Positions 5,088 through 55,856 of a stretch of 64,000 bases of DNA are shown one piece after another. Made by a program: the position numbers and the translations under genes. The stretch is taken from NCBI GenBank assembly GCA_905479985.1, contig CAJQOM010000022.1:3937-67936 (forward strand), given 5' to 3'. Within the stretch, counting starts at the first letter, position 1. Each line of letters begins with the position of its first letter. This DNA is from an uncultured Gammaproteobacteria bacterium. GTDB lineage: Bacteria > Pseudomonadota > Gammaproteobacteria > Nitrosococcales > Methylophagaceae. The notes below the pieces were generated by a model. It saw only the letters and a list, made by a program, of their open reading frames with translations, did not search any database and was not told the DNA's origin.

Positions 5088-7736
5088 ATGGACTCAACCC
5101 AAATCATCAATCGTTTTGAACAGCTTAACCGCACAAGGATCGAGCGGTTAAGCCAACTGGTGTCACCTTCGCAACAAAACTTTTTTAAACTACTGCCTTT
5201 TTTGCTCCACACCAATGCCCCCGACTTACCGGGCTACGGCGCCAAAGAAACCCCTATCGGTCTTATTGATTACCAAGCTGATGATAAAACCATCAACGAG
5301 GCTCAAAAACTCAGCCCAAGCTTCAAATACAAACGCCAAGGCATTCGTCATTATGGCTTTTCCGGCCTAGTCCTAATCAATCCCTATGGTCTGCTCAATA
5401 TCCCTGACCAACCCGTGTTCACCGTCTATGTCATTCATACCGATCTTAACCCTGAACAACATCAAGCCTTAACGCATAAACTCAAACTGCTAACGCAATG
5501 GGCACATGGTTTTGACATCACACTCAACATCGAATTATTGGCAGAAAAAACCCTTTCTACCAGTCCACTTCAACCAGGACAGTTAGAACAGCTTTATCTT
5601 AATGGACTGATTCTCGCCGGCGGCATTCCTTTCTGGTGGCTAGTCCCCCCGGGGGGAAATTATCAACAGACCGTGGAACAGTTTGCACAACAAAGAACCC
5701 AAACACATCATCTACTACTCGATTTTGGTGACCTAAGCTCCGACAATGTGCAGGCACTAATGACCATGGCTTGCGAAAAATTGATCGACAGCCTCGAATC
5801 AGGCCTTACCCACATTCTGCCTTCGCTCTATCTTCAAAGCTTACTCGAACACTACCCGAACATCACTTCTTTAAGCAATGGCTATAAAAAAGCGGTTTAT
5901 GATGGCGAACGTGAACCCCTGACTATTGACTGCAAAGTATTACAATTTAGACATATTGCTAACAGCAACTTAACAACGGAAAGCAAACGTTTAGCGCAAC
6001 AGTCACTCTATTGCCAAACACAAGAAGCCTTATCCAAACGCGTCTCACAACCCAAATACCCTTGGCGACGAGACTTCATCGAAAAAACATCAAAAACATG
6101 GGCTTGGGGCAATCACGAATTTCAGATCCTTGACCAACGTGACACGGCGAAATATGAACACTGTTTAACTGAACACCAACAAACACAAATAGCCTTTGTA
6201 CAAATCCAAGCGACCATCAAACAATTTGCCCATCAACAGCAAATCACCCTGCCGGCAAGCAATTCGCTGATTGATAAGACATTACGACGTTATACCGATG
6301 ACAAGCCCAATATCATCAACGCCCTGCCCAATGGCTTATTAGCAAAAAGATCAGAAGAAGAAATCCATTTATATCGCTTCTCAAACAGTGATGGCTGGAA
6401 ATTAAGCCTCGTCCCACTCTCGACCCAAACGCAAAACCCGCTCTATCAAAATACGTCCTTATTACATGTTTTAGCATGGGCTATCTTCAATGGTTTATTG
6501 AATAAAGCGACCCGGATCCTCATCGCTGACAAACGCCATTTGATGACCATCAAAACCGTCATCTCATTTGTACAGCAATTACTTCGTTCGCCCTTAACAC
6601 AGCAGTTCAAACCCGATCCAAAAACACAGTCAAATTCAGCCCAGCTTCAACATATTTTACTGTTTGCGAATCTAGAACAAAATGAACAGCTCATCGCTGC
6701 CAATCCAAAAGGTTTACAACTGACAAGTCTGCATAATGACCCGTTTAATTATGCTAACCGTGGCGAAAGCCTACTCTACAGCGTTGACGGCTTAATCTGT
6801 TCAACATCAGGTGAATGGCAAACGTTTCAAACCCACGGCAAAACAGCACCGCTCGACCTGTTTAATCGCCTCGTTGCTTGGTGGGTAAATGGTAAGGACA
6901 AAGCAACATTAAGTTGCTGGTGTCCATCTGATACACATGGCCCATTAATTAGTCAGCGACTTAAACAGTTATATCAAGATGTAAACACTCACTATCACAA
7001 AAATAGTGAGGGTGTTTACCTGGTACGGATTGCCGATACCCATTACCAAATTAGTTGGCAGCCTGAAGGCCTCGATATAACCCCCTCCAAAAGCGGCAAC
7101 CTTAATCAAATACTTTCTCGACCTAAGGCCTCTTTTGCCGCTTCAAAAGTCGACGGTAAACTTGACCCAACACAGCAGCTAAGCACCCTTCTGACTTGCC
7201 AGACTAAAGACACCATTAGCCTCATAACCGAACAGAAAAACCACACTATCTCAATTCATATCCTAGATGAATTTGGCAACCTAAGATCCCAACATAACCT
7301 TAAGCTGACCCAAGAAACAGCGCTCCATCATTTCCAGTCTTTCTTAAGTACTATTCAAAAACATAAGCCCAAGCTACAGCTTCGATACTTCAAGATGGTC
7401 GCTCAAACGACAGACAGCGCACCATGGAAATTAACACCACTCTCTGCACCTTCTCTGAGAGAAAAACAAGGCTATCTGCCCGTTATCATCACCATCACAT
7501 CACCCAGAGAAGACGCCCACTGTTCGATCAGTTGTGGCCCTAAACAATTCTTAGGTCCGGCCAACGACAAGGCTTTATTCAAGCAAATCTCATCGTTTAT
7601 CCTAAGCTTAAGAAAATCGAATGTCCCTTACCCGCTCTATATCAATGAAATTAACTTTTCAGAACCTGAAAAAATCACCACCGCAGACTACCTACAACAA
7701 AAACAGCGCTTCGAAAAACAGCTAAACTTCGACTAA
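5088..7736 (+). CDS. Class I (CyaA-type) adenylate cyclase homologue with degenerate catalytic motif
   Basis: By-eye collinearity with E. coli CyaA (recalled): LLPFLLHTNAPDLPGY, LDFGDLSS, HVLAWAIFNGLLNKATRILI. The GS...DxD catalytic segment is replaced by NPYGLLNIPDQPVFTVYVIH. Confidence 0.6.
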   Translation: MDSTQIINRFEQLNRTRIERLSQLVSPSQQNFFKLLPFLLHTNAPDLPGYGAKETPIGLIDYQADDKTINEAQKLSPSFKYKRQGIRHYGFSGLVLINPYGLLNIPDQPVFTVYVIHTDLNPEQHQALTHKLKLLTQWAHGFDITLNIELLAEKTLSTSPLQPGQLEQLYLNGLILAGGIPFWWLVPPGGNYQQTVEQFAQQRTQTHHLLLDFGDLSSDNVQALMTMACEKLIDSLESGLTHILPSLYLQSLLEHYPNITSLSNGYKKAVYDGEREPLTIDCKVLQFRHIANSNLTTESKRLAQQSLYCQTQEALSKRVSQPKYPWRRDFIEKTSKTWAWGNHEFQILDQRDTAKYEHCLTEHQQTQIAFVQIQATIKQFAHQQQITLPASNSLIDKTLRRYTDDKPNIINALPNGLLAKRSEEEIHLYRFSNSDGWKLSLVPLSTQTQNPLYQNTSLLHVLAWAIFNGLLNKATRILIADKRHLMTIKTVISFVQQLLRSPLTQQFKPDPKTQSNSAQLQHILLFANLEQNEQLIAANPKGLQLTSLHNDPFNYANRGESLLYSVDGLICSTSGEWQTFQTHGKTAPLDLFNRLVAWWVNGKDKATLSCWCPSDTHGPLISQRLKQLYQDVNTHYHKNSEGVYLVRIADTHYQISWQPEGLDITPSKSGNLNQILSRPKASFAASKVDGKLDPTQQLSTLLTCQTKDTISLITEQKNHTISIHILDEFGNLRSQHNLKLTQETALHHFQSFLSTIQKHKPKLQLRYFKMVAQTTDSAPWKLTPLSAPSLREKQGYLPVIITITSPREDAHCSISCGPKQFLGPANDKALFKQISSFILSLRKSNVPYPLYINEINFSEPEKITTADYLQQKQRFEKQLNFD

Positions 7737-29672: not shown

Positions 29673-30485
29673 ATGTCACCCATCAACAGGGAGATAAACA
29701 TGAATACTGTCCACGCCTACCATCATCTTAAACCGACACACCCTAACAACATCAAAATAGCGCTGTTAAGGCCTTTTTACTGGCTGAAATCCAGCTGGCA
29801 AGATCTGTATTATCATCCTGCAGCCAGCTTTGGTTATGGCCTCATCGTCACCTCATTAATGCTAATGACCTTTCTCATCACGAGCACCCATATTTATGTT
29901 ATCGCTGCCGCGATTTGTGGCTTTATGTTTTTTGGCCCTATTCTCGCAGCCGGGCTCTGTGAACTCTCATGGCGTCATGAAAAGCATGAACATCTTGATT
30001 TTGACCACTCGCTAAGCCGCTTACGCAAAGTCCAAAATACCTTATATCGTTTTGCCGGTGTGTTACTCGGCTTTAGTCTAATCTGGTTTGCCCTCTCAGC
30101 ATTAATCCTCTCCGTCACCATCGGCAGCGTTGCACCCGCCATTGAACTCACGGTTTGGGATAACTTCTTTGCGCTTGCCACCACACAACAACTCGCACTG
30201 TATGCCTTAAGCGGCGGCTTATTAATGATCGCAGCATTCAGCATCTCCGTCGTCTCCATACCCGCGATCATTGAAATGGATATCTCAGTCAAAGAAGCCA
30301 TGCAACTCAGCTTCAAAGTCTTCATCACCAACCTGCCCACTATGGCGGTTTGGGGAGTTTTAATTGTTCTGCTCTTTTTACTCGGCTTATCAACCTTAAT
30401 GATCGGCATGATCGTACTGTTCCCGCTATTAGGTCATGCAACATGGTATGCCTATCGGGATTTGGTGAAGGATGAGATGTATTAA
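29673..30485 (+). CDS. DUF2189-like integral membrane protein
   Basis: Multiple TM helices. GFMFFGPILAAGLCELSWRHEK resembles my recollection of the DUF2189 core. The start may be the Met at 29700. Confidence 0.5.
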   Translation: MSPINREINMNTVHAYHHLKPTHPNNIKIALLRPFYWLKSSWQDLYYHPAASFGYGLIVTSLMLMTFLITSTHIYVIAAAICGFMFFGPILAAGLCELSWRHEKHEHLDFDHSLSRLRKVQNTLYRFAGVLLGFSLIWFALSALILSVTIGSVAPAIELTVWDNFFALATTQQLALYALSGGLLMIAAFSISVVSIPAIIEMDISVKEAMQLSFKVFITNLPTMAVWGVLIVLLFLLGLSTLMIGMIVLFPLLGHATWYAYRDLVKDEMY

Positions 30486-30628
30486 GTTAAATTTTATGAT
30501 GCTGTAGCAACAAACGGTGTTTATTAATTAAGCTTATTTCGACTAAGGTCGAGTTAAGGAGATGGGGATCCGAAAAATCTCGCGAAACTGTAGAAAAAAT
30601 ACAACATGCCCTTATGCGAAGCCGAGCT

Positions 30629-30776
30629 TTGAAAAGCTATTTGAGATCAATACGACGAGTGTTTGACCGTAGCGACAAATTTGTCTGGAACAAATTTGGA
30701 CGCCGGAGGCGCCCGAAGGGTGAGAGACATGGATGTCTCGAATCAATTTTCGTCGCATCTCAAATAGATTGAAAAG
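30629..30776. mobile_element. MITE-like element with 8-bp direct flanking repeats
   Basis: Perfect 11-bp terminal inverted repeats CTATTTGAGAT (30637-30647) / ATCTCAAATAG (30757-30767), subterminal CGACGA/TCGTCG, and TTGAAAAG on both flanks (30629-30636, 30769-30776). Internal hairpins GACAAATTTGTC and GAGACATggATGTCTC. Confidence 0.55.
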
Positions 30777-30907
30777 TGAGGGAACCCGTAGGGCAAGCAT
30801 GGGCTGGCCTTTTGTTTGGTTCTGTTTATTTTGGCCACGCAAAATAAATGAACACCCAGCAGCAGCTATAAAAATAAAGAGAAAACAAACTTATCTACCT
30901 TTCCCTT

Positions 30908-31729
30908 TTAGTCTTTTTCATAACCTTCATCTAACTCATCTAACAGGAGCGTCATTTCATCATATTCATCAGCATCCTTAGCCCCTAGGTCAACAATGTA
31001 GCGAATTACGCCTCTAATACCATCCAACTCTTCTATAAATTCACTCTCTAATTCTATTTCATGGGCCTGTTGGATGAGATCATAATATTTCTTTACTAAA
31101 AATGCATATGCTTCAGGGTCAATGTTCATATGCACTTTTTTTGTTTTGAGGTTTGTACGCTTAGCAGACATCCGAGTAAGCGCTAAAATCTCCTCTAATA
31201 TTTCTCTCTGATCTCTGCTGGGTTCGATTGAGTCCCCATTATTTTTATATTTCTCAATGATTCCTTTTATTTGTTCCTCCAGCTTAGGCCACCACATATC
31301 AAAAACAGCAGTTAAAACTGAATCATCTAGCCTACTCTCACCCAAAAGCTTGTTAATCGTGGATACAAGCTTTTTAATCTCACCCTTTGTAAATGGTGTC
31401 GATTGAAATTGAACAAGCGGGCCTTTTAAGTCCGAATTATCTAGATCAAAGAGAATAGGACAAACATGAGATGAATCTAATTGTTTCGATAAAGCTCCCG
31501 CTTCAAACATGACCCATGGCTTTTCAAGGTTATCTTTTGTGAGACAAATAATACCAACCTTCGACTCTTCTAATTCGCTCGCGATGTCTGTACTCCACCT
31601 TGTTCCTTTTTCAATATCATTAGGTGTAAAGTAAGGCTTCACTTGCTGAATGACCCCAGGTATCCATGTTCTAAGAGCTTCGCCGAGTTCACGACTCATT
31701 TCTCCTGACCAACTTATAAAAACTTTCAT
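30908..31729 (-). CDS. TIR-domain protein with uncharacterised acidic helical C-terminal domain
   Basis: N-terminus VFISWSG...GTRW...VGIICLTKDNLEKPWVMFEAGAL matches the bacterial TIR/TIR-like pattern, including the conserved Glu (E76). RBS AAGGAG. AT-rich relative to its neighbours. Confidence 0.7.
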   Translation of the reverse strand: MKVFISWSGEMSRELGEALRTWIPGVIQQVKPYFTPNDIEKGTRWSTDIASELEESKVGIICLTKDNLEKPWVMFEAGALSKQLDSSHVCPILFDLDNSDLKGPLVQFQSTPFTKGEIKKLVSTINKLLGESRLDDSVLTAVFDMWWPKLEEQIKGIIEKYKNNGDSIEPSRDQREILEEILALTRMSAKRTNLKTKKVHMNIDPEAYAFLVKKYYDLIQQAHEIELESEFIEELDGIRGVIRYIVDLGAKDADEYDEMTLLLDELDEGYEKD

Positions 31730-31770
31730 CCCTTCTCCTTGTTTATCAATACACTCTGAATAGATCTGTA

Positions 31771-33153
31771 TTAGGTCTTCTTAACCGGCCGAACCCACCC
31801 CTCAACAGCCACCTGCCTACTCTTAGTCAACGTCAACTGCCCATCAACCGCATCCTTCCGTAAAGTCGTTCCAGCACCAATCGTCGCACCCTCACCCACC
31901 GTAACCGGGGCTACCAACTGGGTATCCGATCCAATAAACGCATTATCACCAATCACTGTCCGATGCTTATTAGCACCATCATAATTACAGGTAATCGTCC
32001 CAGCACCAATATTCACCCCGGCACCCATATCAGTATCCCCAATATAGCTCAGATGATTCACTTTTGAACCTAGGCCAATATTGGCATTCTTAGTCTCAAC
32101 AAAGTTACCAATTTTCGCTTTATCAGCTAATACCGTGCCCGGCCTTAGGCGTGCAAAAGGACCAATGTTGACGTTTTGTCCAATCACAGATGAATCAATC
32201 ATGCTATTCGGTAAAATGATACTGCCTTCACCAATCTCACAATCTTTAAGAATACAATTAGCACCAATCTCGACATTCGATGCAATCGATACCTTGCCTT
32301 CAAAAATGACATTCACATCGACTGTACTATCATTGCCTATCGTCAATTCACCCCGGACATCAATGCGTGCCGGATCGGCTAATCTCACACCGGCCGTCAT
32401 TAATTTATCTGCTTGGGCACGTTGATAATGGCGTTCTAGTTCAGCCAATTGTAATCGTGTGTTGACACCCGCTACTTCGGCAGCATCATCACAACATACG
32501 GTATCAATGGCTAAGCCATCAGCCACCGCTAGGGCAATCATATCGGTGAGATAATATTCACCTTGGGCATTATTATTACCCAGCTTATCAAGTGACGATA
32601 ATAGCCACTGGCTAGGCAGCAACATAATCCCGCTGTTTACTTCATCAATGAGTAGCGTTTCAGGATCAGCATCTTTCTGCTCCGTGATACATTTAACTTG
32701 GCCACCTAAATCCCGCACAATGCGGCCATAACCTGTTGGGTCAGCCAATTTGGTTGTTAAAATACCGACACCACCCTCAGCAACACAATCACTTAAAGCC
32801 TGTAATGTTGCAGCTTGGGTTAACGGCACATCACCATAAAGCACTAACACTTGATCAGTCTCAGTCATCGCCGCTTTCGCTTGCATCACTGCATGGCCGG
32901 TGCCCAATTGCTCTGTTTGCATCACGGCATCGACTTGATTGCCTTCTAAAAATGGCAGCACTTGCGCTGCGCCATTGCCCGCCACAACGGTTAACCGTGT
33001 TGGTGTTAATTGCTTGGCAGTATCAATCACATGCTGCAATAACGGTCGACCCGCAAGCCAATGCATTACCTTGGCTTGTGCTGACTTCATTCTAGTGCCT
33101 TTACCAGCAGCAAGGATAACAATACTCAGAGACATAATTTGATTTTCCATCAT
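31771..33153 (-). CDS. glmU: Bifunctional UDP-N-acetylglucosamine diphosphorylase / glucosamine-1-phosphate N-acetyltransferase
   Basis: LAAGKGTRM nucleotidyltransferase motif and C-terminal left-handed beta-helix hexapeptide repeats. The real start is possibly the Met at 33135. Confidence 0.95.
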   Translation of the reverse strand: MMENQIMSLSIVILAAGKGTRMKSAQAKVMHWLAGRPLLQHVIDTAKQLTPTRLTVVAGNGAAQVLPFLEGNQVDAVMQTEQLGTGHAVMQAKAAMTETDQVLVLYGDVPLTQAATLQALSDCVAEGGVGILTTKLADPTGYGRIVRDLGGQVKCITEQKDADPETLLIDEVNSGIMLLPSQWLLSSLDKLGNNNAQGEYYLTDMIALAVADGLAIDTVCCDDAAEVAGVNTRLQLAELERHYQRAQADKLMTAGVRLADPARIDVRGELTIGNDSTVDVNVIFEGKVSIASNVEIGANCILKDCEIGEGSIILPNSMIDSSVIGQNVNIGPFARLRPGTVLADKAKIGNFVETKNANIGLGSKVNHLSYIGDTDMGAGVNIGAGTITCNYDGANKHRTVIGDNAFIGSDTQLVAPVTVGEGATIGAGTTLRKDAVDGQLTLTKSRQVAVEGWVRPVKKT

Positions 33154-46078: not shown

Positions 46079-46855
46079 ATGAAATTGAAACAACTTTCAG
46101 CGCTATGCCTAGCAGCCAGCGTATTAACAGCAGCACCAGCAATGGCTTGGGAAAGTGCTGATGGTCAATTTAACACTAGCGCAAGTGTTGCCTTATCAAC
46201 CGACTACATGTGGCGTGGTTCTTCTCAAACTGATAATGAGCCGGCTATTTCTGGTAGCTTTGATGTCAACCATGCTTCAGGTTTTTACGCTGGTGCATGG
46301 GCATCAAATACTGACAAAATGGTAATGCAAACAAATCTATCTTTCGAACAAGGTCATATCGAAATCAACGGTTACGCTGGTTATGCTAATGAGGTTGGTG
46401 ACACTGGTATCGGTTACGATGTTGGTTTCAAGCGCTACTTCTTCCCCGGCACTGATGGCCAAGCAGATTGGAACGAAGCTTATGCTGCGTTAAACTACAG
46501 TCACTTTGGTTTAAAAATTTCTCACACTGAAGACTTTAACGCCACTCATGAAGAAGCGACTCATTACCTTTTAACTTTCAACCATGCATTACCAATGGGT
46601 GCTCATTTTCATGCTGGCTATGCCTTCTATGATTTTGATGATATTGATGACGTCTTTGGTACAACACCAAATAACATTGATAACCCACTTCAAGATTTCG
46701 GTGTTGGTGTTTCTAAAGACTTCGCTGGTTTCAACTGGGATGTCACATATTACGAAACGCTTAAAGAAGGTAAAGATGCCACTGAAAACAATAATGCTGG
46801 CTCAGATAACAAAGCTGACAGCAGATTTGTACTGACTATTTCTAAGTCTTTATAA
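46079..46855 (+). CDS. TorF-family (TIGR02001/Gcw_chp-like) putative outer-membrane porin, paralogue 1
   Basis: Signal peptide ending AMAWES, the family-typical SASVALSTDYMWRGSSQTDNEPAISGSFD...GFYAGAWASN, and a beta-barrel-like C-terminus ending ISKSL. Confidence 0.7.
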   Translation: MKLKQLSALCLAASVLTAAPAMAWESADGQFNTSASVALSTDYMWRGSSQTDNEPAISGSFDVNHASGFYAGAWASNTDKMVMQTNLSFEQGHIEINGYAGYANEVGDTGIGYDVGFKRYFFPGTDGQADWNEAYAALNYSHFGLKISHTEDFNATHEEATHYLLTFNHALPMGAHFHAGYAFYDFDDIDDVFGTTPNNIDNPLQDFGVGVSKDFAGFNWDVTYYETLKEGKDATENNNAGSDNKADSRFVLTISKSL

Positions 46856-46886
46856 TAATAAAACATTATAAATAGCTGTAATGAAA

Positions 46887-46916
46887 GCCGCCTATCGAAA
46901 GATAGGCGGCTTTTTT
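46887..46916 (+). terminator. Rho-independent terminator after porin paralogue 1
   Basis: GCCGCCTATC-GAAA-GATAGGCGGC followed by T6. Confidence 0.85.
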
Positions 46917-46924
46917 ATTGGCCA

Positions 46925-46994
46925 CATCAAAGCCGCACCAAGGTATCTGAAGCGGCCAAGGAAAAAGCAACTGGTCAGTTGTTGGACAAATCAC
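46925..46994 (-). pseudogene. Relic of the lgt 5' end, carried in the tandem duplication
   Basis: The minus strand reads VICPTTDQLLFPWPLQIPWCGFD, versus the true lgt N-terminus [25 protein letters not shown]. The DNA aligns with 45786-45857. Confidence 0.7.
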
Positions 46995-47090
46995 ACAACA
47001 TTCTCAAAATGTGGAAAAAACAGACATTTTTCTCAAATTGAAGCCACAAACACTGGCTCATAGTCTTAATTGTGGTTAGAGTCGTGACAT

Positions 47091-47125
47091 ATTGTCTTGT
47101 TTTAACTGCAATTAATAAAGACAAT
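47091..47125. promoter_or_regulatory. Conserved palindrome (candidate operator) upstream of porin paralogue 2
   Basis: ATTGTCTT-N19-AAGACAAT, the counterpart of 45955-45987. Confidence 0.35.
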
Positions 47126-47218
47126 TTCAATACTAACAACCTAAATCAACACCATTGTCAGTTTGCAACATTAACTGCAGTCAAACATTTTATTTAATAC
47201 TTCCAGGAGACGAGAAAC

Positions 47219-47986
47219 ATGAAATTAAAACAACTTTCAGCACTGTGCCTAGCAGCCAGCGTATTAACAGCAGCACCTGCAATGGCTTGGGAAAGTGATG
47301 ACGGCCAATTTAGCACTAGTGCAAGCGTTGCACTTTCTACAGACTACATGTGGCGTGGTAGCTCACAAACTGATAATGAGCCAGCTATTTCTGGTAGCTT
47401 TGATGTTAACCACGCTAGCGGTTTTTATGCAGGCGCTTGGGCTTCAAATGTAGATCTTGGAAATGCTGATGGCCGCGGTAACAACGCGCATATTGAAATT
47501 GATGGTTACTTTGGTTATGCCAATGAAATCGGCGATACAGGTATTGGCTATGATGTTGGTGCGATGCGCTACTTCTTCCCGGGTACTGAAAGTATCGACT
47601 GGAATGAATATTATGCAGCACTAAGCTACAGTCACTTCGGCATAAAAGTTTCTCATACAGAAGACTTTGGTGGTTCTGACGAGCAAGCTACTCACTACCT
47701 GTTTACTTTCAACCATGATTTACCCATGGGCGCGCACCTACATGCAGGTTACGCATTCTATGACTTCGATGATATCGATAATGTCTTTGGTACAACACCA
47801 AATAACATAGACAACCCTCTTCAAGACTATGGCATTGGTGTTTCTAAAGACTTCGCTGGTTTCAACTGGGATGTCACATATTACGAAACACTTAAAGAAG
47901 GTAAAGATGCCACTGAAAACAATAATGCTGGCTCAGATAACAAAGCTGACAGCAGATTTGTACTGACTATTTCTAAATCTTTGTAA
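47219..47986 (+). CDS. TorF-family putative outer-membrane porin, paralogue 2
   Basis: Near-identical N- and C-termini to paralogue 1, with a divergent central loop (NVDLGNADGRGNNAH). Confidence 0.7.
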   Translation: MKLKQLSALCLAASVLTAAPAMAWESDDGQFSTSASVALSTDYMWRGSSQTDNEPAISGSFDVNHASGFYAGAWASNVDLGNADGRGNNAHIEIDGYFGYANEIGDTGIGYDVGAMRYFFPGTESIDWNEYYAALSYSHFGIKVSHTEDFGGSDEQATHYLFTFNHDLPMGAHLHAGYAFYDFDDIDNVFGTTPNNIDNPLQDYGIGVSKDFAGFNWDVTYYETLKEGKDATENNNAGSDNKADSRFVLTISKSL

Positions 47987-48016
47987 TAAATTCAGTCACA
48001 ATCAAGTTTTAAAAAA

Positions 48017-48052
48017 GGGCCAGCTATCGAAAGATAGCTGGCCCTTTTTTTT
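48017..48052 (+). terminator. Rho-independent terminator after porin paralogue 2
   Basis: GGGCCAGCTATC-GAAA-GATAGCTGGCCC followed by T8. The loop is the same as in terminator 1, with compensatory stem changes. Confidence 0.85.
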
Positions 48053-48132
48053 CATTATCGCCATTCCCCATCAAGCACTAAACATCCCCCAAAACAATTC
48101 CCACATCGTCCGATCAAAGGGCTAAACTCACC

Positions 48133-48180
48133 TGCACCTTTATAGCGCACCCCGCTATTTCCTTGCACCAGCATCGCCCA
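48133..48180 (+). promoter_or_regulatory. Two NtrC-like enhancer sites
   Basis: TGCACCTTTATAGCGCA (48133-48149) and TGCACCAGCATCGCCCA (48164-48180), compared with the consensus TGCACCA-N3-TGGTGCA. They lie 65-110 bp upstream of the sigma54 element. Confidence 0.4.
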
Positions 48181-48245
48181 TACAACCACTTAAACCCCCC
48201 ACCAAAATCAACATAACACACTGTTAATAAACATATTTACAACTT

Positions 48246-48261
48246 TGGCCCACATCCTGCA
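48246..48261 (+). promoter_or_regulatory. Sigma54 (-24/-12) promoter for porin3-glnK-amtB
   Basis: TGGCCCACATCCTGCA fits TGGCAC-N5-TTGCA, with GG and GC at the correct spacing. About 90 nt upstream of the porin 3 ATG. Confidence 0.6.
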
Positions 48262-48350
48262 ATAAAGAAATCAGTCTGAATCTACTTAGCCGCTACCCAG
48301 TAGCCCAGTGCATTCAAACGTTAAATTTATATTCTCTAGGAGATGGAAAA

Positions 48351-49052
48351 ATGAAAATGAAAAAACTCTCAGCGCTGTGTCTCACAGCCAGTACATTAAT
48401 GGCCACCTCATCAGTAATGGCCTGGGAAAGTGAAGATGGACAACATTCAACAAGCGCCAGCGTCGCCTTAACATCTGATTACGTCTGGCGTGGTTACAGC
48501 CAAACCGATAGCAAACCCGCCATTTCAGGCAGCTTTGATTACGGCCATTCAAGTGGTTTCTATGCAGGGACATGGGCTTCAAATGTAGATTATGGTGATG
48601 ATGCAAGCATCGAAATAGATATTTACGCTGGCTATGCCAGCGAAATTGGTAATACCGGTGTTGGTTACGATGTCGGGCTATTACGTTACATTTACCCTGG
48701 TGAAGATTATGGCTATAACGAAGCGTACGCCTCTCTTAGTTATAGCTTCTTCAGCGCAAACGTAGCACATACCAGTAATTCTTCTTTTCATAGCGACAGC
48801 GCTACTTATTACTCATTAGGTTTTGATTATGATCTGCCCAAGGGCGTTGCACTGAGCGCAGGTTATGGCTATTACGATTACGACATGTCAGGTGTCGACT
48901 CTCCAACTGATTATCGTGTTGGCCTTTCTACCGAACTTGTTGGTTTTGGTCTCGACTTAACTTACACCGATACCGATAGTGACGGTGAGGACCTTTATGG
49001 TAAGAGCCTTGCCGACGGTCGCTTAATCTTCACAATCTCAAAATCTTTGTAA
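48351..49052 (+). CDS. TorF-family putative outer-membrane porin, paralogue 3 (divergent)
   Basis: AWESEDGQHSTSASVALTSDYVWRGYSQTDSKPAISGSFDYGHSSGFYAGTWASNVD, C-terminus FTISKSL. Immediately upstream of glnK. Confidence 0.7.
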   Translation: MKMKKLSALCLTASTLMATSSVMAWESEDGQHSTSASVALTSDYVWRGYSQTDSKPAISGSFDYGHSSGFYAGTWASNVDYGDDASIEIDIYAGYASEIGNTGVGYDVGLLRYIYPGEDYGYNEAYASLSYSFFSANVAHTSNSSFHSDSATYYSLGFDYDLPKGVALSAGYGYYDYDMSGVDSPTDYRVGLSTELVGFGLDLTYTDTDSDGEDLYGKSLADGRLIFTISKSL

Positions 49053-49107: not shown

Positions 49108-49458
<351 letters not shown>

Positions 49459-49476
49459 TTTAGAGGAGCAACACCC

Positions 49477-50745
49477 ATGGAAGATCAAATTTTCCAACTC
49501 CAATATGCGATGGACACATTCTATTTTCTAGTGTGTGGCGCCTTAGTCATGTGGATGGCAGCAGGCTTTGCCATGCTAGAAGCCGGCCTTGTTCGTGCTA
49601 AAAACACGACAGAAATTTTAACAAAAAACGTGATGCTTTTCGCCATCGCATGTACCGCTTATTTAGTTGTCGGTTACGACATTATGTACGGCGGCGGACT
49701 TTTCCTTGATGGTATCGACGGTGGTGAAACATTAGTTGCTGACGCATTAGCCGCTTCTGCAGAAGCCGGTTTTGAAGGTGGCTCTGTTTACTCAAGCGCA
49801 TCTGATTTCTTCTTCCAGGTTGTGTTTGTTGCAACTGCGATGTCGATTGTTTCTGGTGCCGTTGCTGAGCGAATGAAATTATCAGCATTTGCCTTTTTTG
49901 CAGTTGCTATGACAGCATTCATTTACCCAATGGAAGGTGCTTGGACTTGGGGTGGTGAATCTGTATTTGGCCTATATTCATTAGGTGATGACTTTGGTTT
50001 CCTTGATTTTGCAGGCTCAGGTATCGTCCATATGGCCGGTGCAGCAGCAGCCCTTGCAGGCGTTATTTTGTTAGGCGCACGTAAAGGCAAATATGGTGCT
50101 AACGGCGAAGTCAAACCGATTCCTGGTGCTAACTTACCTTTAGCGACACTTGGTACCTTCATCTTATGGATGGGTTGGTTCGGCTTTAATGGTGGTTCGG
50201 TATTAAAACTGGGTGATATGGCCAGTGCCAACGCCGTTGCCATGGTGTTCTTAAATACCAATGCCGCAGCAGCCGGTGGTGTTATTGCCGCCTTGCTAAT
50301 GGCTAAAATGCTATTTGGTAAAGCAGACTTAACGATGATTTTGAATGGTGCTTTAGCCGGTCTTGTTGCCATTACTGCCGGCCCTGATACACCCACACCA
50401 CTTTACGCAACATTAATTGGGGGTGTCGGTGGCGCCTTAGTGGTCATCTCAATTGTCATGATGGATAAATTCAAACTGGATGATCCGGTCGGTGCTATCT
50501 CTGTCCACGGTGTTGTCGGTTTATGGGGTCTATTAGCGGTACCTCTCACTAACAGCGATGCCAGCTTCACCGGCCAATTAGTCGGTGCTGCAACCATCTT
50601 TGTATGGGTCTTCGTGACAAGCTTTATCGTCTGGGCCGTGTTAAAAATGGTGATGGGTATCCGCGTCTCAGAAGAAGAAGAGTACGCCGGTGTTGATTTA
50701 AGTGAATGTGGTATGGAAGCTTACCCAGAGTTCACAGATAGATAG
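49477..50745 (+). CDS. amtB: Ammonium transporter
   Basis: 11-12 TM Amt family protein with DFAGSGIVH and ISVHGVVGLWG motifs. Confidence 0.95.
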   Translation: MEDQIFQLQYAMDTFYFLVCGALVMWMAAGFAMLEAGLVRAKNTTEILTKNVMLFAIACTAYLVVGYDIMYGGGLFLDGIDGGETLVADALAASAEAGFEGGSVYSSASDFFFQVVFVATAMSIVSGAVAERMKLSAFAFFAVAMTAFIYPMEGAWTWGGESVFGLYSLGDDFGFLDFAGSGIVHMAGAAAALAGVILLGARKGKYGANGEVKPIPGANLPLATLGTFILWMGWFGFNGGSVLKLGDMASANAVAMVFLNTNAAAAGGVIAALLMAKMLFGKADLTMILNGALAGLVAITAGPDTPTPLYATLIGGVGGALVVISIVMMDKFKLDDPVGAISVHGVVGLWGLLAVPLTNSDASFTGQLVGAATIFVWVFVTSFIVWAVLKMVMGIRVSEEEEYAGVDLSECGMEAYPEFTDR

Positions 50746-51363: not shown

Positions 51364-51969
51364 ATGATAAATATCGACTCAATCAACAAAGCACCGCTAA
51401 AAACAGCACCTTTTCCTTACTTCACCGTAATGCAATCGATGCTGGATGAAAAACTCCCGCAGCTTGTCCAAGAGTTTCCAGCTATCACGCGTGGTGGCAG
51501 CTTTAACAAAGAAGACCTTGATCTTAGCGATAACTACGATGCCCTCCATCAATCGCTTGACTCAGCAGGCTTCCGCCAAGCCTTATCCGAAAAATTTGAT
51601 GTTGATGTTATCGATGCACCGATCATGCTCACCTACCGTGGCTTCTCTCGCAATAAAGATGGCCGTGTTCATACCGATTCAAAGACCAAACTCCTCACCA
51701 TCCTGATCTACTTCAATGATGGTTGGTCAGCAGAAACCGGCAAATTGCGCATTCTCAACAGTGACGATATGAATGACATTGCCGAAGAAGTTAACCCCAC
51801 TGCCGGCTGTATGATCGCCTTTAAAGTCACCGATAATTGCTGGCACGGTTACCCTTCATTTGAAGGCACGCGGAACGCCATCCAAGTGAATTTCCTCGCC
51901 AGCGAAGCAGCCAGTAAAAAGCACAAATTCTTCCATAAAATGAGTGCCAAGCTAAAGTCACTTAAGTAG
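51364..51969 (+). CDS. 2OG-Fe(II) oxygenase superfamily protein (prolyl-4-hydroxylase-like)
   Basis: RVHTDS (HxD) ... GKLRIL ... CWHGY distal His, in a jelly-roll-sized 201-aa protein. Confidence 0.6.
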   Translation: MINIDSINKAPLKTAPFPYFTVMQSMLDEKLPQLVQEFPAITRGGSFNKEDLDLSDNYDALHQSLDSAGFRQALSEKFDVDVIDAPIMLTYRGFSRNKDGRVHTDSKTKLLTILIYFNDGWSAETGKLRILNSDDMNDIAEEVNPTAGCMIAFKVTDNCWHGYPSFEGTRNAIQVNFLASEAASKKHKFFHKMSAKLKSLK

Positions 51970-52675
51970 GGCCAGAGCTCTTTCTAATATTTACTGGCCG
52001 ACCACGCCGGCTATAGCCCACTTTTTGGCCCAAGATAGATTCAACCTCCGACTTAAACCGAGCATCACCCAGTGGTGCACCAGTCTGCCAACACGCATTA
52101 ATTTGCCTCAACACCTCGGCAGACTCTTCCGAATCAAACAAAGCCAAATAAGCCGCTTGTCGCAAGCCCCTATCAGCATCTAAATCTTGGTAAATAATAT
52201 GCGGACTTAAAAAATCATCTCGCATGCCTATCCCGTTGGCATTACGGTGATGGCTCGACCACCGATAATCAAGCGGGCTAGCCACCTTGCCTGCACGAAC
52301 AGGGTTCGATTCAATAGAGCGCATACATCGTAGTAAATAAGCCTCTTCTTGTACCAAGCTGGCCTTATAGCGGCCTTCCCACAGCGAGCCGCTGCGGCCA
52401 TACTTCTGATTAATGTAAGGCACATAATAACGGCCCACATACTGCATCATCCGAGTCACACCCTCATTATCTTCTGGCGTTGCTAAAATATGAATATGAT
52501 TTGTCATCAACACATAAGCATGGACATGACACCGGTACCGACTTGCGGCTTGTTTAAGCCAGCCTAAATAGGCTAAGTAGTCTTCATCTTCGAAAAAAAC
52601 AGCAGAGCGATTATGTCCACGCTGGACAATATGCAGGGGAATACCAGGAATAACAAAACGTGGCTTACGAGGCAT
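51962..52675 (-). mobile_element. REP-associated tyrosine transposase (RAYT, IS200/IS605-like Y1 HUH), apparently intact
   Basis: PLHIVQRGHNR, HUH motif MTNHIHIL, LWEGRYKASLV catalytic Tyr region, IESNPVRAG, DYRWSS. Confidence 0.85.
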
Positions 52676-52733
52676 GTCTCAATCTAACAAGATAAATAAA
52701 TGGATCTCCAGCTTAGCACGACAGAAATTGTTC

Positions 52734-52760
52734 TTAAAGCGCTCCGGCCCCTTTAATTAG
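52734..52760. repeat. Degenerate REP-like sequence upstream of the intact RAYT
   Basis: TTAAAGCGCTCCGGCCCCTTTAATTAG resembles the REP core AAAGGGAAGCGTCCCCTTTTAATT. Confidence 0.3.
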
Positions 52761-53527
52761 AGCACCGCATTTTTAATCAAATGTGTCGGTATTTTATTTT
52801 TGATCTGCTCGTGCAGCGCCGGTAATAACGACCAATGCACGCCTTGCTCATGATGGTGTGCAGTATGGTAACCCAAATTACCTGTCATGATATTGTAGAA
52901 CCGGTTCAAATTGTTTCTTGACGCCTCAAACTCATTATCGGTATCCAAACCTGAGTGATGCTCATATGTCGCCCAAGCAGTCAGTAATAAACCAGTAATC
53001 ATTGGTAAAATAAATAAGAACAGCGCAGCTATCGGATTAAAATAGGTCAACACTGCCACGACAGAAAATGTAATTGCCGTATAAAACATGAATATTTTTT
53101 GTAACTTAGGAAAACGCGCTCCCACTTTAAACCCGCGGAAATAAGCGGTGCCAGCCACGGTCAGCGTATATTCAATTTCACCCATCGTTTTTCCGGATTT
53201 ATGCTGCCAACGACTCTCATCCTTGCTTTGATCCATATAATTCTGATGATGCCCCAAGACGTGGTGTAGCATCCATAAATTCGTGGTGATACCAGTATGC
53301 AAAGCATAGAACAGCTCTAGTAATCGGTTCAATCCCTTTTGTTTAAACGTCAACGTGTGTTGGTGATGGTGGTTCCACGCACATATTTTACCTTTGGGTA
53401 TGATCATCACGAACCAAAAAGCCGCTAATAACCAGACGTTCTCAACTAGGAAATACAAACTAAAATCGAGCACACTAAACAAAAGTATAATTGTGACAGG
53501 CAGACGATCAGCAGCGTATTTAAACAC
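52757..53527 (-). CDS. Membrane di-iron fatty-acid desaturase/hydroxylase superfamily protein
   Basis: Three His boxes (NHHHQH, HHVLGHH, HTAHHHEQ) and four hydrophobic segments; 256 aa. Confidence 0.65.
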   Translation of the reverse strand: MFKYAADRLPVTIILLFSVLDFSLYFLVENVWLLAAFWFVMIIPKGKICAWNHHHQHTLTFKQKGLNRLLELFYALHTGITTNLWMLHHVLGHHQNYMDQSKDESRWQHKSGKTMGEIEYTLTVAGTAYFRGFKVGARFPKLQKIFMFYTAITFSVVAVLTYFNPIAALFLFILPMITGLLLTAWATYEHHSGLDTDNEFEASRNNLNRFYNIMTGNLGYHTAHHHEQGVHWSLLPALHEQIKNKIPTHLIKNAVL

Positions 53528-53702
53528 AGAGTAGAGCCCTATTTATAAATGACCCGTAAGAATAGCCTAATCTGATCTAAAAGGTAAAGAACAAAAGTTA
53601 ACGAAAGTTGTCAAATAAGCAGTGTCTTCGCCGCCACAAATAAAGGGGTCAGAGTTGTTTTATGCCATTTCATCTAAAACATCCTCACCAAGACTTTCTA
53701 TA

Positions 53703-53957
53703 TCAACGCTTGAACTGCAAACTACCAACTCCTATCAATACCAATAAAGCCCCGATACCGATCGTCAATGTAAATGGCTCATCTAAAATATAAACCGCTA
53801 ATGCAATCGTAAAGACTGGCCCAAGCATGCCAACAGCACTGGCTTGAACAGCCCCAATTCGGCCAATCGCAGCACTGATCATAAAACTGGGAATAACCGT
53901 ACTAAAAACGGCGAGCAAAACCAACCAGAACCAAGGTAACTGGCCCCAAAGCGAAAA
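53703..53957 (-). pseudogene. 3' fragment of an EamA/DMT-family transporter gene
   Basis: Only the last ~85 codons remain open (LVLLAVFSTVIPSFMISAAIGRIGAVQAS...LDEPFT...LVLIGV). There is a stop immediately upstream and no N-terminal half. Confidence 0.6.
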
Positions 53958-53982
53958 TTAGCCTCATGCCTAACTGCTCTTT

Positions 53983-54015
53983 TAAAGGGAATTAAAGGCA
54001 AGCATCCCTTAGGGA
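53983..54015. repeat. Degenerate REP copy
   Basis: TAAAGGGAATTAAAGGCAAGCATCCCTTAGGG compared with GAATTAAAGGGAAGCGTCCCCTTTTAG. Confidence 0.35.
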
Positions 54016-54067
54016 TCAAAATAGAAATCACTCTAGTTGGGCTTGCTTTTTAAAGTGGTATTTTTAA

Positions 54068-54322
54068 TCAATAATGATAACGACACTGTGCTATAAATAA
54101 GCCAGAATCATTTACCTTATATACTAAGCGATGCACCATATCTATTCTCCTCGACCAATATCCTGACCAGTTGTGTTTTAACGGTTCTGGATCTCCCAAA
54201 CCATTAAATGCTTGGCGCTGGATATCTTTTATCAATAAATTGATGCGCTTTAACTTTTTTTTATCTTCTTTTTGCCAGTACAAATAATCATCCCAAGCAT
54301 GACTCGCCCAAGATAAGTGCAT
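54068..54322 (-). CDS. yoeB: YoeB/Txe-family toxin (mRNA interferase)
   Basis: 84 aa with WDDYLYWQ...DKKKLKRINLLIKDI...PEPLK...WSRRI...HRLVY...CRYHY, typical of YoeB. Confidence 0.9.
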   Translation of the reverse strand: MHLSWASHAWDDYLYWQKEDKKKLKRINLLIKDIQRQAFNGLGDPEPLKHNWSGYWSRRIDMVHRLVYKVNDSGLFIAQCRYHY

Positions 54323-54573
54323 TATTTTATAATCTCTCGGCTAGTTGCATTCCCTGACTCAATTTCCAGAATAGCTTGGTTCAGCCTGATAGCGTTCTTA
54401 GGGCTAGCCATTAAGTAAGCTGTTTCTTCGTATGATTGAAAGTCTTCCAAACTCATTACGACAGCAGGTTTTCCATTTTGTCGTGTAATCATCATCGGTT
54501 TATGGTCGTTATTTACTCTATCCAACACACTCGCTAATTGAGTTCTAAAGGCTGAATAACTTACGGTATCCAT
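54322..54573 (-). CDS. yefM: Phd/YefM-family antitoxin
   Basis: 83 aa with SYSAFRTQLASVLDRV...PMMITRQNGKPAVVMSLEDFQSYEET. TAATG overlap with yoeB. Confidence 0.9.
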   Translation of the reverse strand: MDTVSYSAFRTQLASVLDRVNNDHKPMMITRQNGKPAVVMSLEDFQSYEETAYLMASPKNAIRLNQAILEIESGNATSREIIK

Positions 54574-54605
54574 AATATAATCTCACTCTAAATAGGAACA
54601 TACAC

Positions 54606-54633
54606 TTATTATAGTACCTGTACCATAATAAGT
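54606..54633. promoter_or_regulatory. Palindromic candidate operator of yefM-yoeB
   Basis: CTTATTATAGTACCTGTACCATAATAAG is a near-perfect palindrome with GTAC cores, 33 nt upstream of the yefM start. YefM-YoeB operators in E. coli carry TGTACA-type cores. Confidence 0.5.
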
Positions 54634-54659
54634 ACAAGGTGGCCCAACCTATTTATTCT

Positions 54660-54731
54660 CAGCGATGGCCGCGCCGGGTGATGGTGAGAGATATTTTCAG
54701 GAAAAACATGACTAGAGACTCTGGACATAGG
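54660..54731 (-). pseudogene. Second RAYT 5' remnant (about 24 codons)
   Basis: The minus strand reads MSRVSSHVFPENISHHHPARPS, compared with MPRAARHVFPNIPHHITQRGN of the neighbouring fragment. DNA 54700-54782 parallels 54996-55075. Confidence 0.45.
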
Positions 54732-54738
54732 CAATACC

Positions 54739-55029
54739 TTACCCTCGCAGGAAAATAAAAGGGAAGCGTCCCCTTTTAGTTTGCAACGGTTTTAAGACCT
54801 TCATAAGCCCATCTTCAGTAGAAGGAATAAGCACCAAGTGGATATGGTTATCCATTAAGCAATAGCTAAGCAACGTGACAGCGTATTTGTGGCAATAGTC
54901 TATTAGCCATTCAAGATAAAGCTGCTTATCATCATCACAAAAGAATACGTCCTCACGGCGATTACCACGCTGGGTAATATGATGAGGAATATTAGGGAAA
55001 ACGTGTCTAGCGGCTCTGGGCATAGACAA
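54739..55029 (-). pseudogene. Truncated RAYT (N-terminal ~86 aa including HUH), broken at a REP copy
   Basis: MPRAARHVFPNIPHHITQRGNRREDVFF...LMDNHIHLVL. The frame then runs into REP1 sequence; the catalytic Tyr region is absent. Confidence 0.75.
54758..54782 (+). repeat. REP hairpin copy 1
   Basis: AAAGGGAAGCGTCCCCTTTTAGTT, with stem AAAGGG/CCCTTT. Confidence 0.8.
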
Positions 55030-55051
55030 TATCTTGCCCTAGCAAGGAATT

Positions 55052-55088
55052 AAAGGGAAGCGTCCCCTTTTAGTTTCCCTTTTAGTTT
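55052..55088 (+). repeat. REP hairpin copy 2 plus partial tail duplication
   Basis: AAAGGGAAGCGTCCCCTTTTAGTT followed by TCCCTTTTAGTTT. Confidence 0.8.
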
Positions 55089-55181
55089 ATGACTACTGAA
55101 ATCATCACCAATTTTACTGAAAACATCTCCCAAACTATAGTTCTTAGGACCAGCAACATAATCAAACTGTCGACTTGAATT

Positions 55182-55205
55182 AAAGGGAAGCGTCCCCTTT
55201 TAGTT
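55182..55205 (+). repeat. REP hairpin copy 3
   Basis: Identical core AAAGGGAAGCGTCCCCTTTTAGTT, preceded by GAATT as in copy 2. Confidence 0.8.
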
Positions 55206-55263
55206 CACTGACCATGTGGGCTATACAAAAACGTTCGTCTGCGTTTAAATGATGGTAAGGCAT
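55201..55263 (-). pseudogene. Possible IS30-family transposase N-terminal remnant
   Basis: The minus strand reads MPYHHLNADERFCIAHMVSE and then runs into REP3. HLxxxER..I is the usual start of the IS30 HTH. Confidence 0.25.
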
Positions 55264-55379
55264 CGTAGGTTTCCTAATAACTTAAGTTGTGGTGATTTAA
55301 ACTTATTAGAATTTACGATGCCTGCTTTTTTATCTCAACTGTTGCACTTGGAACTTGAATTCAGCTATTGATTTCAAAT

Positions 55380-55856
55380 TTAATTACTCTGGCTTATTTT
55401 ATTTTTGTATCTGTGCTGCGAATATTTTCTTGCACCATACAAGAAAAAACCGAAAAACCAAGCATAAAGTGCTGTCACCCTTGAATGTGATTTCCGCTCT
55501 TGAAAATTCACAATTTCTATATTATCTACGTACAGCTGCTTAATCGAACCTGCTGTAAAGTAGGCATTAAAGTTAGAATGTATGGGTTTAGGGACCAAAC
55601 TGTAAAAGTCATTACACTTTTTATTGGGCAGTCTAAAAAGTAAATTTTTTTCTGTATTCAAATGTACTTCGAGCAAAGTTTTTTCGCCTCCTCGCGTCTT
55701 CTGTAGTTCTTGACAATCAAATAGTTGTATTGTGCCTTGATAATGCCTAAGCCTTCTTATATCTGATACATCCTCTGCTGTTTCCCAAAAGATAAAATAA
55801 ACCGCAACCAAATACCCGATAAATAAAGTCCACAACAATCTCTTTTTTGCACTCAT
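55380..55856 (-). CDS. Orphan AT-rich membrane protein (N- and C-terminal TM helices)
   Basis: 158-aa ORF with no recognisable motifs, lying between REP copies 3 and 4. Confidence 0.4.
   Translation of the reverse strand: MSAKKRLLWTLFIGYLVAVYFIFWETAEDVSDIRRLRHYQGTIQLFDCQELQKTRGGEKTLLEVHLNTEKNLLFRLPNKKCNDFYSLVPKPIHSNFNAYFTAGSIKQLYVDNIEIVNFQERKSHSRVTALYAWFFGFFLYGARKYSQHRYKNKISQSN

Follow-up and report, generated by a model that had tools for sequence, protein, structure and literature searches.

A solitary TIR gene in a strain-variable defence hotspot behind glmU: a candidate anti-phage gene of an uncultured gammaproteobacterium

A 64,000-nucleotide stretch of contig CAJQOM010000022.1 (hereafter the window), from an uncultured gammaproteobacterium of the Methylophagaceae, carries directly downstream of glmU a gene for a 273-residue protein with an N-terminal TIR domain. 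Comparison with related strains shows that the position behind glmU is a strain-variable hotspot with allelic defence cargo, and the TIR gene is best read as a horizontally acquired single cargo of this hotspot, which lies near the replication origin. A defence role is strongly suggested because relatives hold AbiT-like, SoFic or HNH genes in the same slot. We give a probability of slightly over one half (about 0.52) to the reading that this is a stand-alone TIR gene, transcribed by read-through, whose product would respond to phage by cleaving nicotinamide adenine dinucleotide (NAD+), leading to growth arrest or abortive infection.

The identical protein (P0001) was found on 23 metagenome contigs from several independent samples. 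In the six contigs shown here it is encoded directly behind glmU, and the order is atp-glmU-TIR-DUF2189 wherever the contig extends further. In sister strains with glmU genes ~92-93% identical in nucleotides, some of them from the same sampling series, the TIR slot is occupied by an AbiTii/AbiTi fusion gene (273-289 residues, GC content 0.40, PADLOC AbiTii 2e-34). Further-removed relatives hold a PtuB-like HNH gene (glmU protein 92% identical), whose reading frame is whole in L107 but broken by a frameshift in L108-L110, a SoFic gene (PADLOC 5e-48; glmU protein 86% identical) or a baeRF/Host_attach gene (glmU protein 79% identical). An apparently empty allele (L103, positions 5766-6018, and L106), likewise of sister strains with glmU ~92-93% identical, consists of the last ~115 bp of an AbiT-like gene fused to the end of glmU, altering the final residues of the glmU product to ...VKIP, and this allele without cargo is a deletion derivative. 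The cargo of the slot is evidently subject to decay as well as to replacement. The TIR gene is thus not universally conserved between glmU and the DUF2189 gene, the comparison in relatives that had been proposed when the gene was first described from this DNA alone, and the defence role and single-gene layout put forward in that original prediction are well supported by the genomic context.

Between alleles, homology stops within the final one or two codons of glmU (31771-31776) and resumes directly after the stop codon of the cargo, in an element at 30774-30895 that is 85-95% identical behind the TIR, AbiT-like (AbiTii), HNH and SoFic cargos. On the right flank, ~95% identity to the other alleles resumes at 30564. 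Given such sharp boundaries, the slot therefore holds exactly one gene, between glmU and the conserved downstream element. The TIR gene itself shows zero nucleotide differences among the six contigs, although ~0.4% divergence is seen in the flanking DNA of one of them, a pattern that fits recent acquisition or spread, though the numbers are small.

The 3' side of the gene had been described in the original prediction as mobile-element debris. This description does not hold: positions 30486-30907 carry no transposase or insertion sequence signature, no Pfam or Rfam match and are not repeated elsewhere in the window, and the conserved element common to all alleles of the locus lies within them. 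Nor was the proposal borne out that the gene occupies a slot usually filled by glmS, as glmS follows glmU in no relative of this lineage examined. The conserved element has no Rfam match, and its predicted fold is no better than those of shuffled sequences. It contains an AT-rich hairpin (UUUAUUUUG/CAAAAUAAA). Assignment as a terminator, small RNA or integron attC site found no support in the fold, and no RYYYAAC/GTTRRRY cores were seen on inspection; a native operon end, a recombination boundary or a small RNA are its candidate roles. Between this element and the right flank, ~80 bp at 30668-30746 with two GC-rich hairpins (GAGACATCCATGTCTC; a GGGCGCC...GGCGTCC stem with a T-rich run behind it) are missing from L001, an otherwise near-identical contig with the TIR allele, and the remainder of 30565-30773 is mosaic between alleles.

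The TIR protein is matched by the PADLOC model PDLC03016 "TIR-TM" at E=3.7e-84, with residues 1-203 aligned to profile positions 1-206 of 293. Relatives of ~265-300 residues number in the thousands among 5.8 billion proteins searched, and the family occupies at least 573 loci in species-representative genomes of Pseudomonadota, Bacteroidota, Acidobacteriota, Planctomycetota, Clostridia and other groups. Judged by its sequence, the protein is a further member of an already catalogued, very widespread TIR family and, taken whole, is not without known relatives. Literature searches on the PADLOC name "TIR-TM" yielded nothing relevant, and the name was resolved by scanning the proteins of phage AC1. 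Among phage records, tblastn matches were found in the P2-like phage AC1 and the lambdoid phage mEp390. The AC1 homologue, gp02 (315 residues), shares 43% identity with residues 1-209 of the window protein (E=3e-56) and follows two small membrane-protein genes; PADLOC assigns this trio to TIR-TM (E=2.7e-118, full length), 1TM-TIR and 2TM-TIR. Cloned as three genes, the AC1 locus conferred on E. coli C protection from lambda, LF82_P8 and P2; its TIR protein was proposed to make a messenger for the transmembrane (TM) proteins (Rousset et al., 2022; PMC9122126). The identical three-gene unit is found in 14 of 5,426 complete E. coli genomes.

Profile and structure searches assign residues 1-128 to the TIR fold and Glu76 to the catalytic position, as the original prediction had proposed for its N-terminal bacterial TIR domain. 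Pfam TIR_2 (PF13676) matches residues 3-116 with 39.8 bits against a cut-off of 28, and Pfam TIR (PF01582) matches with 25 bits against a cut-off of 21.3. A search of PDB sequences returned plant TIR NADases, and W72...E76 aligns with the catalytic Glu of their "WCLDEL" motif (7crb, 7xoz). Glu76 is invariant in both family alignments (27 and 106 sequences), together with 31 further positions in the larger one. The AlphaFold2 model, built on 106 homologues, has a mean predicted local distance difference test (pLDDT) score of 83. In it, the beta-alpha core of the TIR domain (1-128) leads into a long helix (136-163); a low-confidence linker then connects to another helix (174-195), and three helices form a bundle at 205-272. 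Against the PDB, Foldseek aligned residues ~1-160 with SPARTA TIR-APAZ, plant TIRs, SpbK, AbTir and PdTIR, the probability being 1.00 for SPARTA TIR, L6, RPS4, RUN1, SpbK, AbTir and PdTIR. Foldseek against viral structures was uninformative.

Conservation falls sharply along the protein. Across the 106 family members, mean identity is 69% in the TIR core, 50-56% in the neck outside its linker and 17% in the C-terminal bundle, and alignment entropy is 3.1 bits in the bundle vs 0.95 bits in the TIR core. The neck consists of a long helix with VFDMWWPKL, the low-confidence linker and the REILEEILALTR helix, and its invariant residues are W147, R172, E180, L182 and R186. Residues 196-273 carry a net charge of -14, the most acidic bundle in the family sample. 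The C-terminal half has no match in Pfam, PDB sequences or Foldseek, neither Pfam nor fold searches detected an APAZ, SAVED, STING or cNMP-binding domain in it, and residues 129-273 modelled separately gave a pLDDT of 68 and no fold match. The description of this half as acidic and helical was accurate, and the statement that it matches nothing is therefore true of that half, given the lack of any Pfam or fold match. The C-terminus appears sensor-like because identity there is 17% against 69% in the TIR core, and the bundle is a natural candidate for the part that binds the trigger.

At the level of the gene, the open reading frame (ORF) and the motifs VFISWSG (residues 3-9), GTRW (42-45), VGIICLT (58-64) and PWVMFEAGAL (71-80), together with the Glu76 codon, are all present as first described (Table 1). 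The glmU stop codon (31771-31773) and the TIR start codon (ATG, 31729-31727) are 41 bp apart, and an AAGGAG at 31735-31740 lies 5 nt ahead of the ATG. A consensus scan detected no terminator-like hairpin in the spacer, and a promoter scan of it gave no excess over shuffles and no convincing promoter. The gap, the ribosome-binding sequence and the absence of a hairpin had all been noted before and were verified, and read-through from glmU, raised then as possible co-transcription, is plausible given the lack of a terminator in the spacer. Transcripts of atp-glmU probably read through into the TIR gene, whose translation would be driven by its own AAGGAG. Its GC content of 0.38, among the lowest of the 60 ORFs called in the window, compares with 0.46 for glmU, 0.46 for the DUF2189 gene and 0.448 for the whole window, so that it is indeed more AT-rich than both neighbours. 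The surroundings are an origin-proximal housekeeping region with rnpA, yidC, mnmE, dnaA and dnaN, then mnmG, rsmG, parAB, the atp operon and glmU, these names being given from gene order and translations, and in such surroundings the low GC content of the TIR gene is conspicuous.

Table 1. Coordinates of the TIR gene, its parts and the flanks of the variable slot in the window.
Feature	Position	Strand	Basis
TIR-family ORF, 273 residues + stop	30908..31729	minus	ORF list; ATG start
TIR domain, residues 1-128	31346..31729	minus	Pfam TIR_2 (residues 3-116), AlphaFold2 model, Foldseek
Glu76 codon, putative catalytic residue	31502..31504	minus	family alignments; plus strand ttc = gaa on coding strand
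Conserved helical "neck", residues 129-195	31145..31345	minus	model helices and invariant residues
Hypervariable acidic C-terminal helical bundle, residues 196-273	30911..31144	minus	low identity, high entropy
glmU-TIR spacer, 41 bp, left edge of variable slot	31730..31770	minus	sequence
glmU, last gene of atp-glmU cluster, conserved left flank	31771..33153	minus	Pfam Hexapep/NTP_transferase
Conserved ~90-120-bp element, right edge of variable slot	30774..30895	unassigned	comparison of alleles
DUF2189 membrane-protein gene, convergent with TIR gene, conserved right flank	29673..30485	plus	Pfam DUF2189 E=9e-21

The gene stands alone in the window. When the remaining 53 window proteins were scanned with PADLOC, the matches were all weak and generic, with no ThsA, SIR2, Macro, cyclase, reverse transcriptase, prokaryotic Argonaute, STING-like, 1TM-TIR or 2TM-TIR protein, and tblastn with the Vibrio ThsA and ThsB proteins found nothing in the 64 kb. 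The gene upstream of the TIR gene is glmU, where AC1 has its membrane-protein genes, and neither 1TM-TIR (PDLC02977) nor 2TM-TIR (PDLC02978) has a match in the window. The small ORFs at 30486-30907 show no TM or Pfam signal. The original observation that no TIR-system partner is nearby accordingly extends to the full 64 kb as scanned by PADLOC. Its exclusion of Thoeris, CBASS, Pycsar and SPARTA stands for the layouts, which are absent here. It does not carry over to a Thoeris-type signalling role, given three relatives that adjoin Thoeris genes.

The same solitary state prevails in most of the family. Genes were called around 78 genome loci, and the ten nearest neighbours per locus were clustered by BLASTP; no neighbour family occurred in more than 7 of the 78 loci, and none at a fixed position. 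Pfam and PADLOC searches on 147 immediate neighbours returned scattered integrases and assorted defence genes (AbiV, LmuB, PD-Lambda-1, PD-T7-4, DRTs, mads), and a conserved partner gene, sought in the 78 loci by all three approaches, was not found. By tblastn, the AC1 TM proteins gp03 and gp04 have no homologue in the window or at any other family locus. A hydrophobicity scan picked out ~5 loci with small upstream TM ORFs as possible AC1-like partners, which were rejected because they lack homology both to the AC1 proteins and to one another. P0006 and P0002, closer relatives at 66-71% identity, are likewise solitary. So is the mEp390 copy (gp47, 272 residues), an opposite-strand moron between the Q and holin genes with annotated bidirectional terminators on the Q side; this TIR gene has no near-identical copy among the 5,426 complete E. 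coli genomes. On a 4.7-kb mobilisable plasmid of Serratia marcescens (L121, NZ_CP091124.1), the only genes apart from the TIR gene are those for replication and mobilisation and one small gene of the NadS family; the TIR gene overlaps the end of the rep gene by 4 bp.

Three independent loci depart from this pattern. In Vibrio parahaemolyticus (L007-L010) and in a Burkholderiales metagenome-assembled genome (L014), a family member lies immediately upstream of a ThsA_Macro+ThsB_TIR pair; in L117, a pair of this kind is found at a distance of 2.2 kb from the gene for P0010, a member with 62% identity to the window protein. Among the closest relatives of the window protein, the members linked to Thoeris are interspersed with solitary ones. 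The Vibrio trio of TIR, ThsA_Macro and ThsB_TIR genes (8001-10415 in L007-L010) adjoins filamentous-phage genes, with Rep_trans and Zot upstream and, in L007, also Phage_CRI downstream, and looks like a small defence island beside an integrated filamentous phage. Elsewhere, Pseudomonas sp. TH32 (L011, 8001-10725) carries two divergent family copies (275 and 271 residues) that point towards each other within an island; a phage-type integrase marks its border, and it holds no other recognisable defence partner. A close relative in L114 lies next to ParE/Phd and HicB toxin-antitoxin genes.

In the preferred reading, the protein would be inactive until it bound a phage component, most likely through the variable C-terminal bundle. 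The TIR domains would then cluster and cleave NAD+, and growth arrest or abortive infection would follow. Precedents for defence by a single TIR protein exist in SpbK of Bacillus subtilis, for which a portal protein is the activator and filament formation is required (PMC12847820), and in the E. coli TIR-V/VI/IX proteins (PMC11350192). Several points weigh against this reading. No biochemical or phage data were found for the window protein or for any solitary family member. The sole validated relative, from AC1, was tested jointly with two TM proteins, for which its TIR was proposed as the signal maker, and three relatives adjoin ThsA_Macro+ThsB modules. Furthermore, the visible genome amounts to 64 kb, leaving room for a trans-acting effector elsewhere, and co-transcription with glmU is argued solely from the absence of a terminator. 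Enzymatic activity, autonomy and the nature of the trigger are likewise inferred for this protein. Because of the three Thoeris-adjacent relatives, the lone layout seen here does not decide whether the protein would deplete NAD+ or make a signal.

The latter option is the most serious rival, which we consider unlikely but by no means far-fetched: the TIR protein would be ThsB-like and, on sensing phage, would make an NAD+-derived signal (a cyclic ADP-ribose isomer or of the His-ADPR type) for an effector encoded elsewhere, for instance a ThsA of the Macro-TM type or small TM proteins, so that the window gene would be an orphan sensor acting in trans or one stranded without its effector. Both the adjacency to type II Thoeris modules, interleaved as these members are with solitary ones, and the AC1 pairing of a family TIR with two TM proteins proposed as signal-activated effectors speak for such a role. 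However, ~80 of ~88 non-redundant loci have no partner of this kind, and the solitary copies include those on a lambdoid phage and a 4.7-kb plasmid, with which a trans partner is unlikely to co-travel. The 64 kb contain no match to ThsA, Macro, SIR2 or 1TM/2TM-TIR, the window protein matches neither the PADLOC ThsB models nor Pfam ThsB_TIR, and shared defence islands can arise without functional coupling. It is improbable that the gene is a functionless or decaying passenger, a recent transfer persisting in a recombination-prone slot without contributing to fitness. Other alleles of the slot are visibly decaying (the truncated AbiTii 3' end and the frameshifted HNH genes of L108-L110), and the TIR gene offers no nucleotide diversity usable for selection testing; yet its ORF is intact with all invariant and near-invariant family residues kept, it has a strong Shine-Dalgarno sequence, and the identical protein recurs on 23 contigs from several independent samples. 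Less probable still is a role outside defence, as a toxin-like or addiction element or as a regulator of NAD+ or nucleotide pools tied to the preceding cell-envelope and energy operon. The place immediately behind atp-glmU without a terminator, the intrinsic toxicity of TIR NADases and the toxin-antitoxin genes beside the relative in L114 would agree with it, but the position is not conserved, other strains hold unrelated defence genes or nothing there, the family is found in unrelated contexts across phyla, and no antitoxin-like partner is present.

Returning to the stand-alone NAD+-cleaving defence gene that we prefer, this reading matches a systematic survey of TIR signalling, which explicitly left stand-alone TIRs out, regarding them as effectors that probably deplete NAD+ (bioRxiv 10.64898/2025.12.03.692087). 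The class is under-studied, as stand-alone bacterial TIR proteins are common and few have been tested. The present gene is a good but fairly ordinary candidate for an anti-phage gene. Members of its family are variously solitary, accompanied by two TM proteins or adjacent to type II Thoeris, and the family is therefore convenient for asking when a TIR depletes NAD+ and when it signals. More speculatively, and in our view rather doubtfully, this one TIR family may be a portable, modular phage sensor, in which the hypervariable C-terminal bundles recognise different phage proteins while the conserved core of TIR domain and neck either kills by NAD+ depletion or passes a signal to effectors, be they in cis or in trans. 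If so, the solitary copies, including the window gene with its read-through from an essential operon, would be working immune sensors, trans-acting or autonomous, and their diffusible signal could feed effectors such as Macro-TM ThsA or small TM proteins. Sensors of this sort would belong to the very class set aside in systematic Thoeris surveys. The locus is also of use in itself: placed beside the origin, where the atp-glmU cluster has its 3' end, it is a compact hotspot for single defence genes, and its alleles (TIR, AbiT-like, SoFic, HNH) and sharp boundaries lend themselves to the mining of single-gene defences in uncultured marine bacteria.

Two further regions of the window were noted. 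A second low-GC accessory patch at 51962-55856 holds an IS200/Y1-transposase-like gene (237 residues), a fragment of another (96 residues), a fatty-acid desaturase gene, a YoeB/YefM toxin-antitoxin pair at 54068-54573 (GC 0.36-0.39) and an unassigned ORF of 158 residues (GC 0.35). At 46079-49052 there are three tandem paralogues of the Gcw_chp (PF09694) outer-membrane beta-barrel family with near-identical signal peptides, just upstream of a glnK/amtB-like pair at 49120-50745 (named from translations).

Among known systems, the TIR-APAZ protein of SPARTA is the best structural match for residues ~1-160, the TIR domain and the next helix (E about 1e-4). However, the window protein has no APAZ, no Argonaute gene is its neighbour, and the PADLOC Aga_TIR model reaches just E=2.6e-4. 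Type II Thoeris is linked to the family by the three independent loci described above and shares with the window protein the TIR chemistry on NAD+ that is predicted for the latter; its Macro-TM ThsA has been renamed ThsC, and its signalling is of the His-ADPR type (bioRxiv 10.64898/2025.12.03.692087). In contrast to ThsB, the window protein has no ThsB profile match and is ~90 residues longer than the co-located ThsB, there is no ThsA/Macro gene in the window, and most family loci are without Thoeris genes.

SpbK and TIR-V/VI/IX resemble the window gene in organisation, as each is one gene, the family of the window gene having no recurrent neighbour at the 78 loci, and joins a TIR domain with a catalytic Glu, putative in the window protein, to a non-TIR part possibly binding a phage protein. 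The likeness to SpbK is at the level of fold only (Foldseek match to the SpbK TIR filament 9phb_A, E=2.2e-3, 14% identity), SpbK being absent among the PDB sequence-search matches, and the TIR domain is C-terminal in SpbK and TIR-V/IX, whereas it is N-terminal in the window protein. The closest known system is the AC1 locus, termed Rst_2TM_1TM_TIR in DefenseFinder and TIR-TM, 1TM-TIR and 2TM-TIR in PADLOC. It has two upstream genes for small TM proteins and was validated only as a trio, while the window gene has neither, and the C-terminal ~70 residues of the two TIR proteins are unrelated, the PADLOC match of the window protein ending at profile position 206 of 293. Nevertheless, both belong to the same protein family and PADLOC model, share the FISWSG, GTRW, PW.xFEAGAL and WWP motifs and an N-terminal TIR domain followed by a helical C-terminus, and are carried as cargo of variable hotspots.

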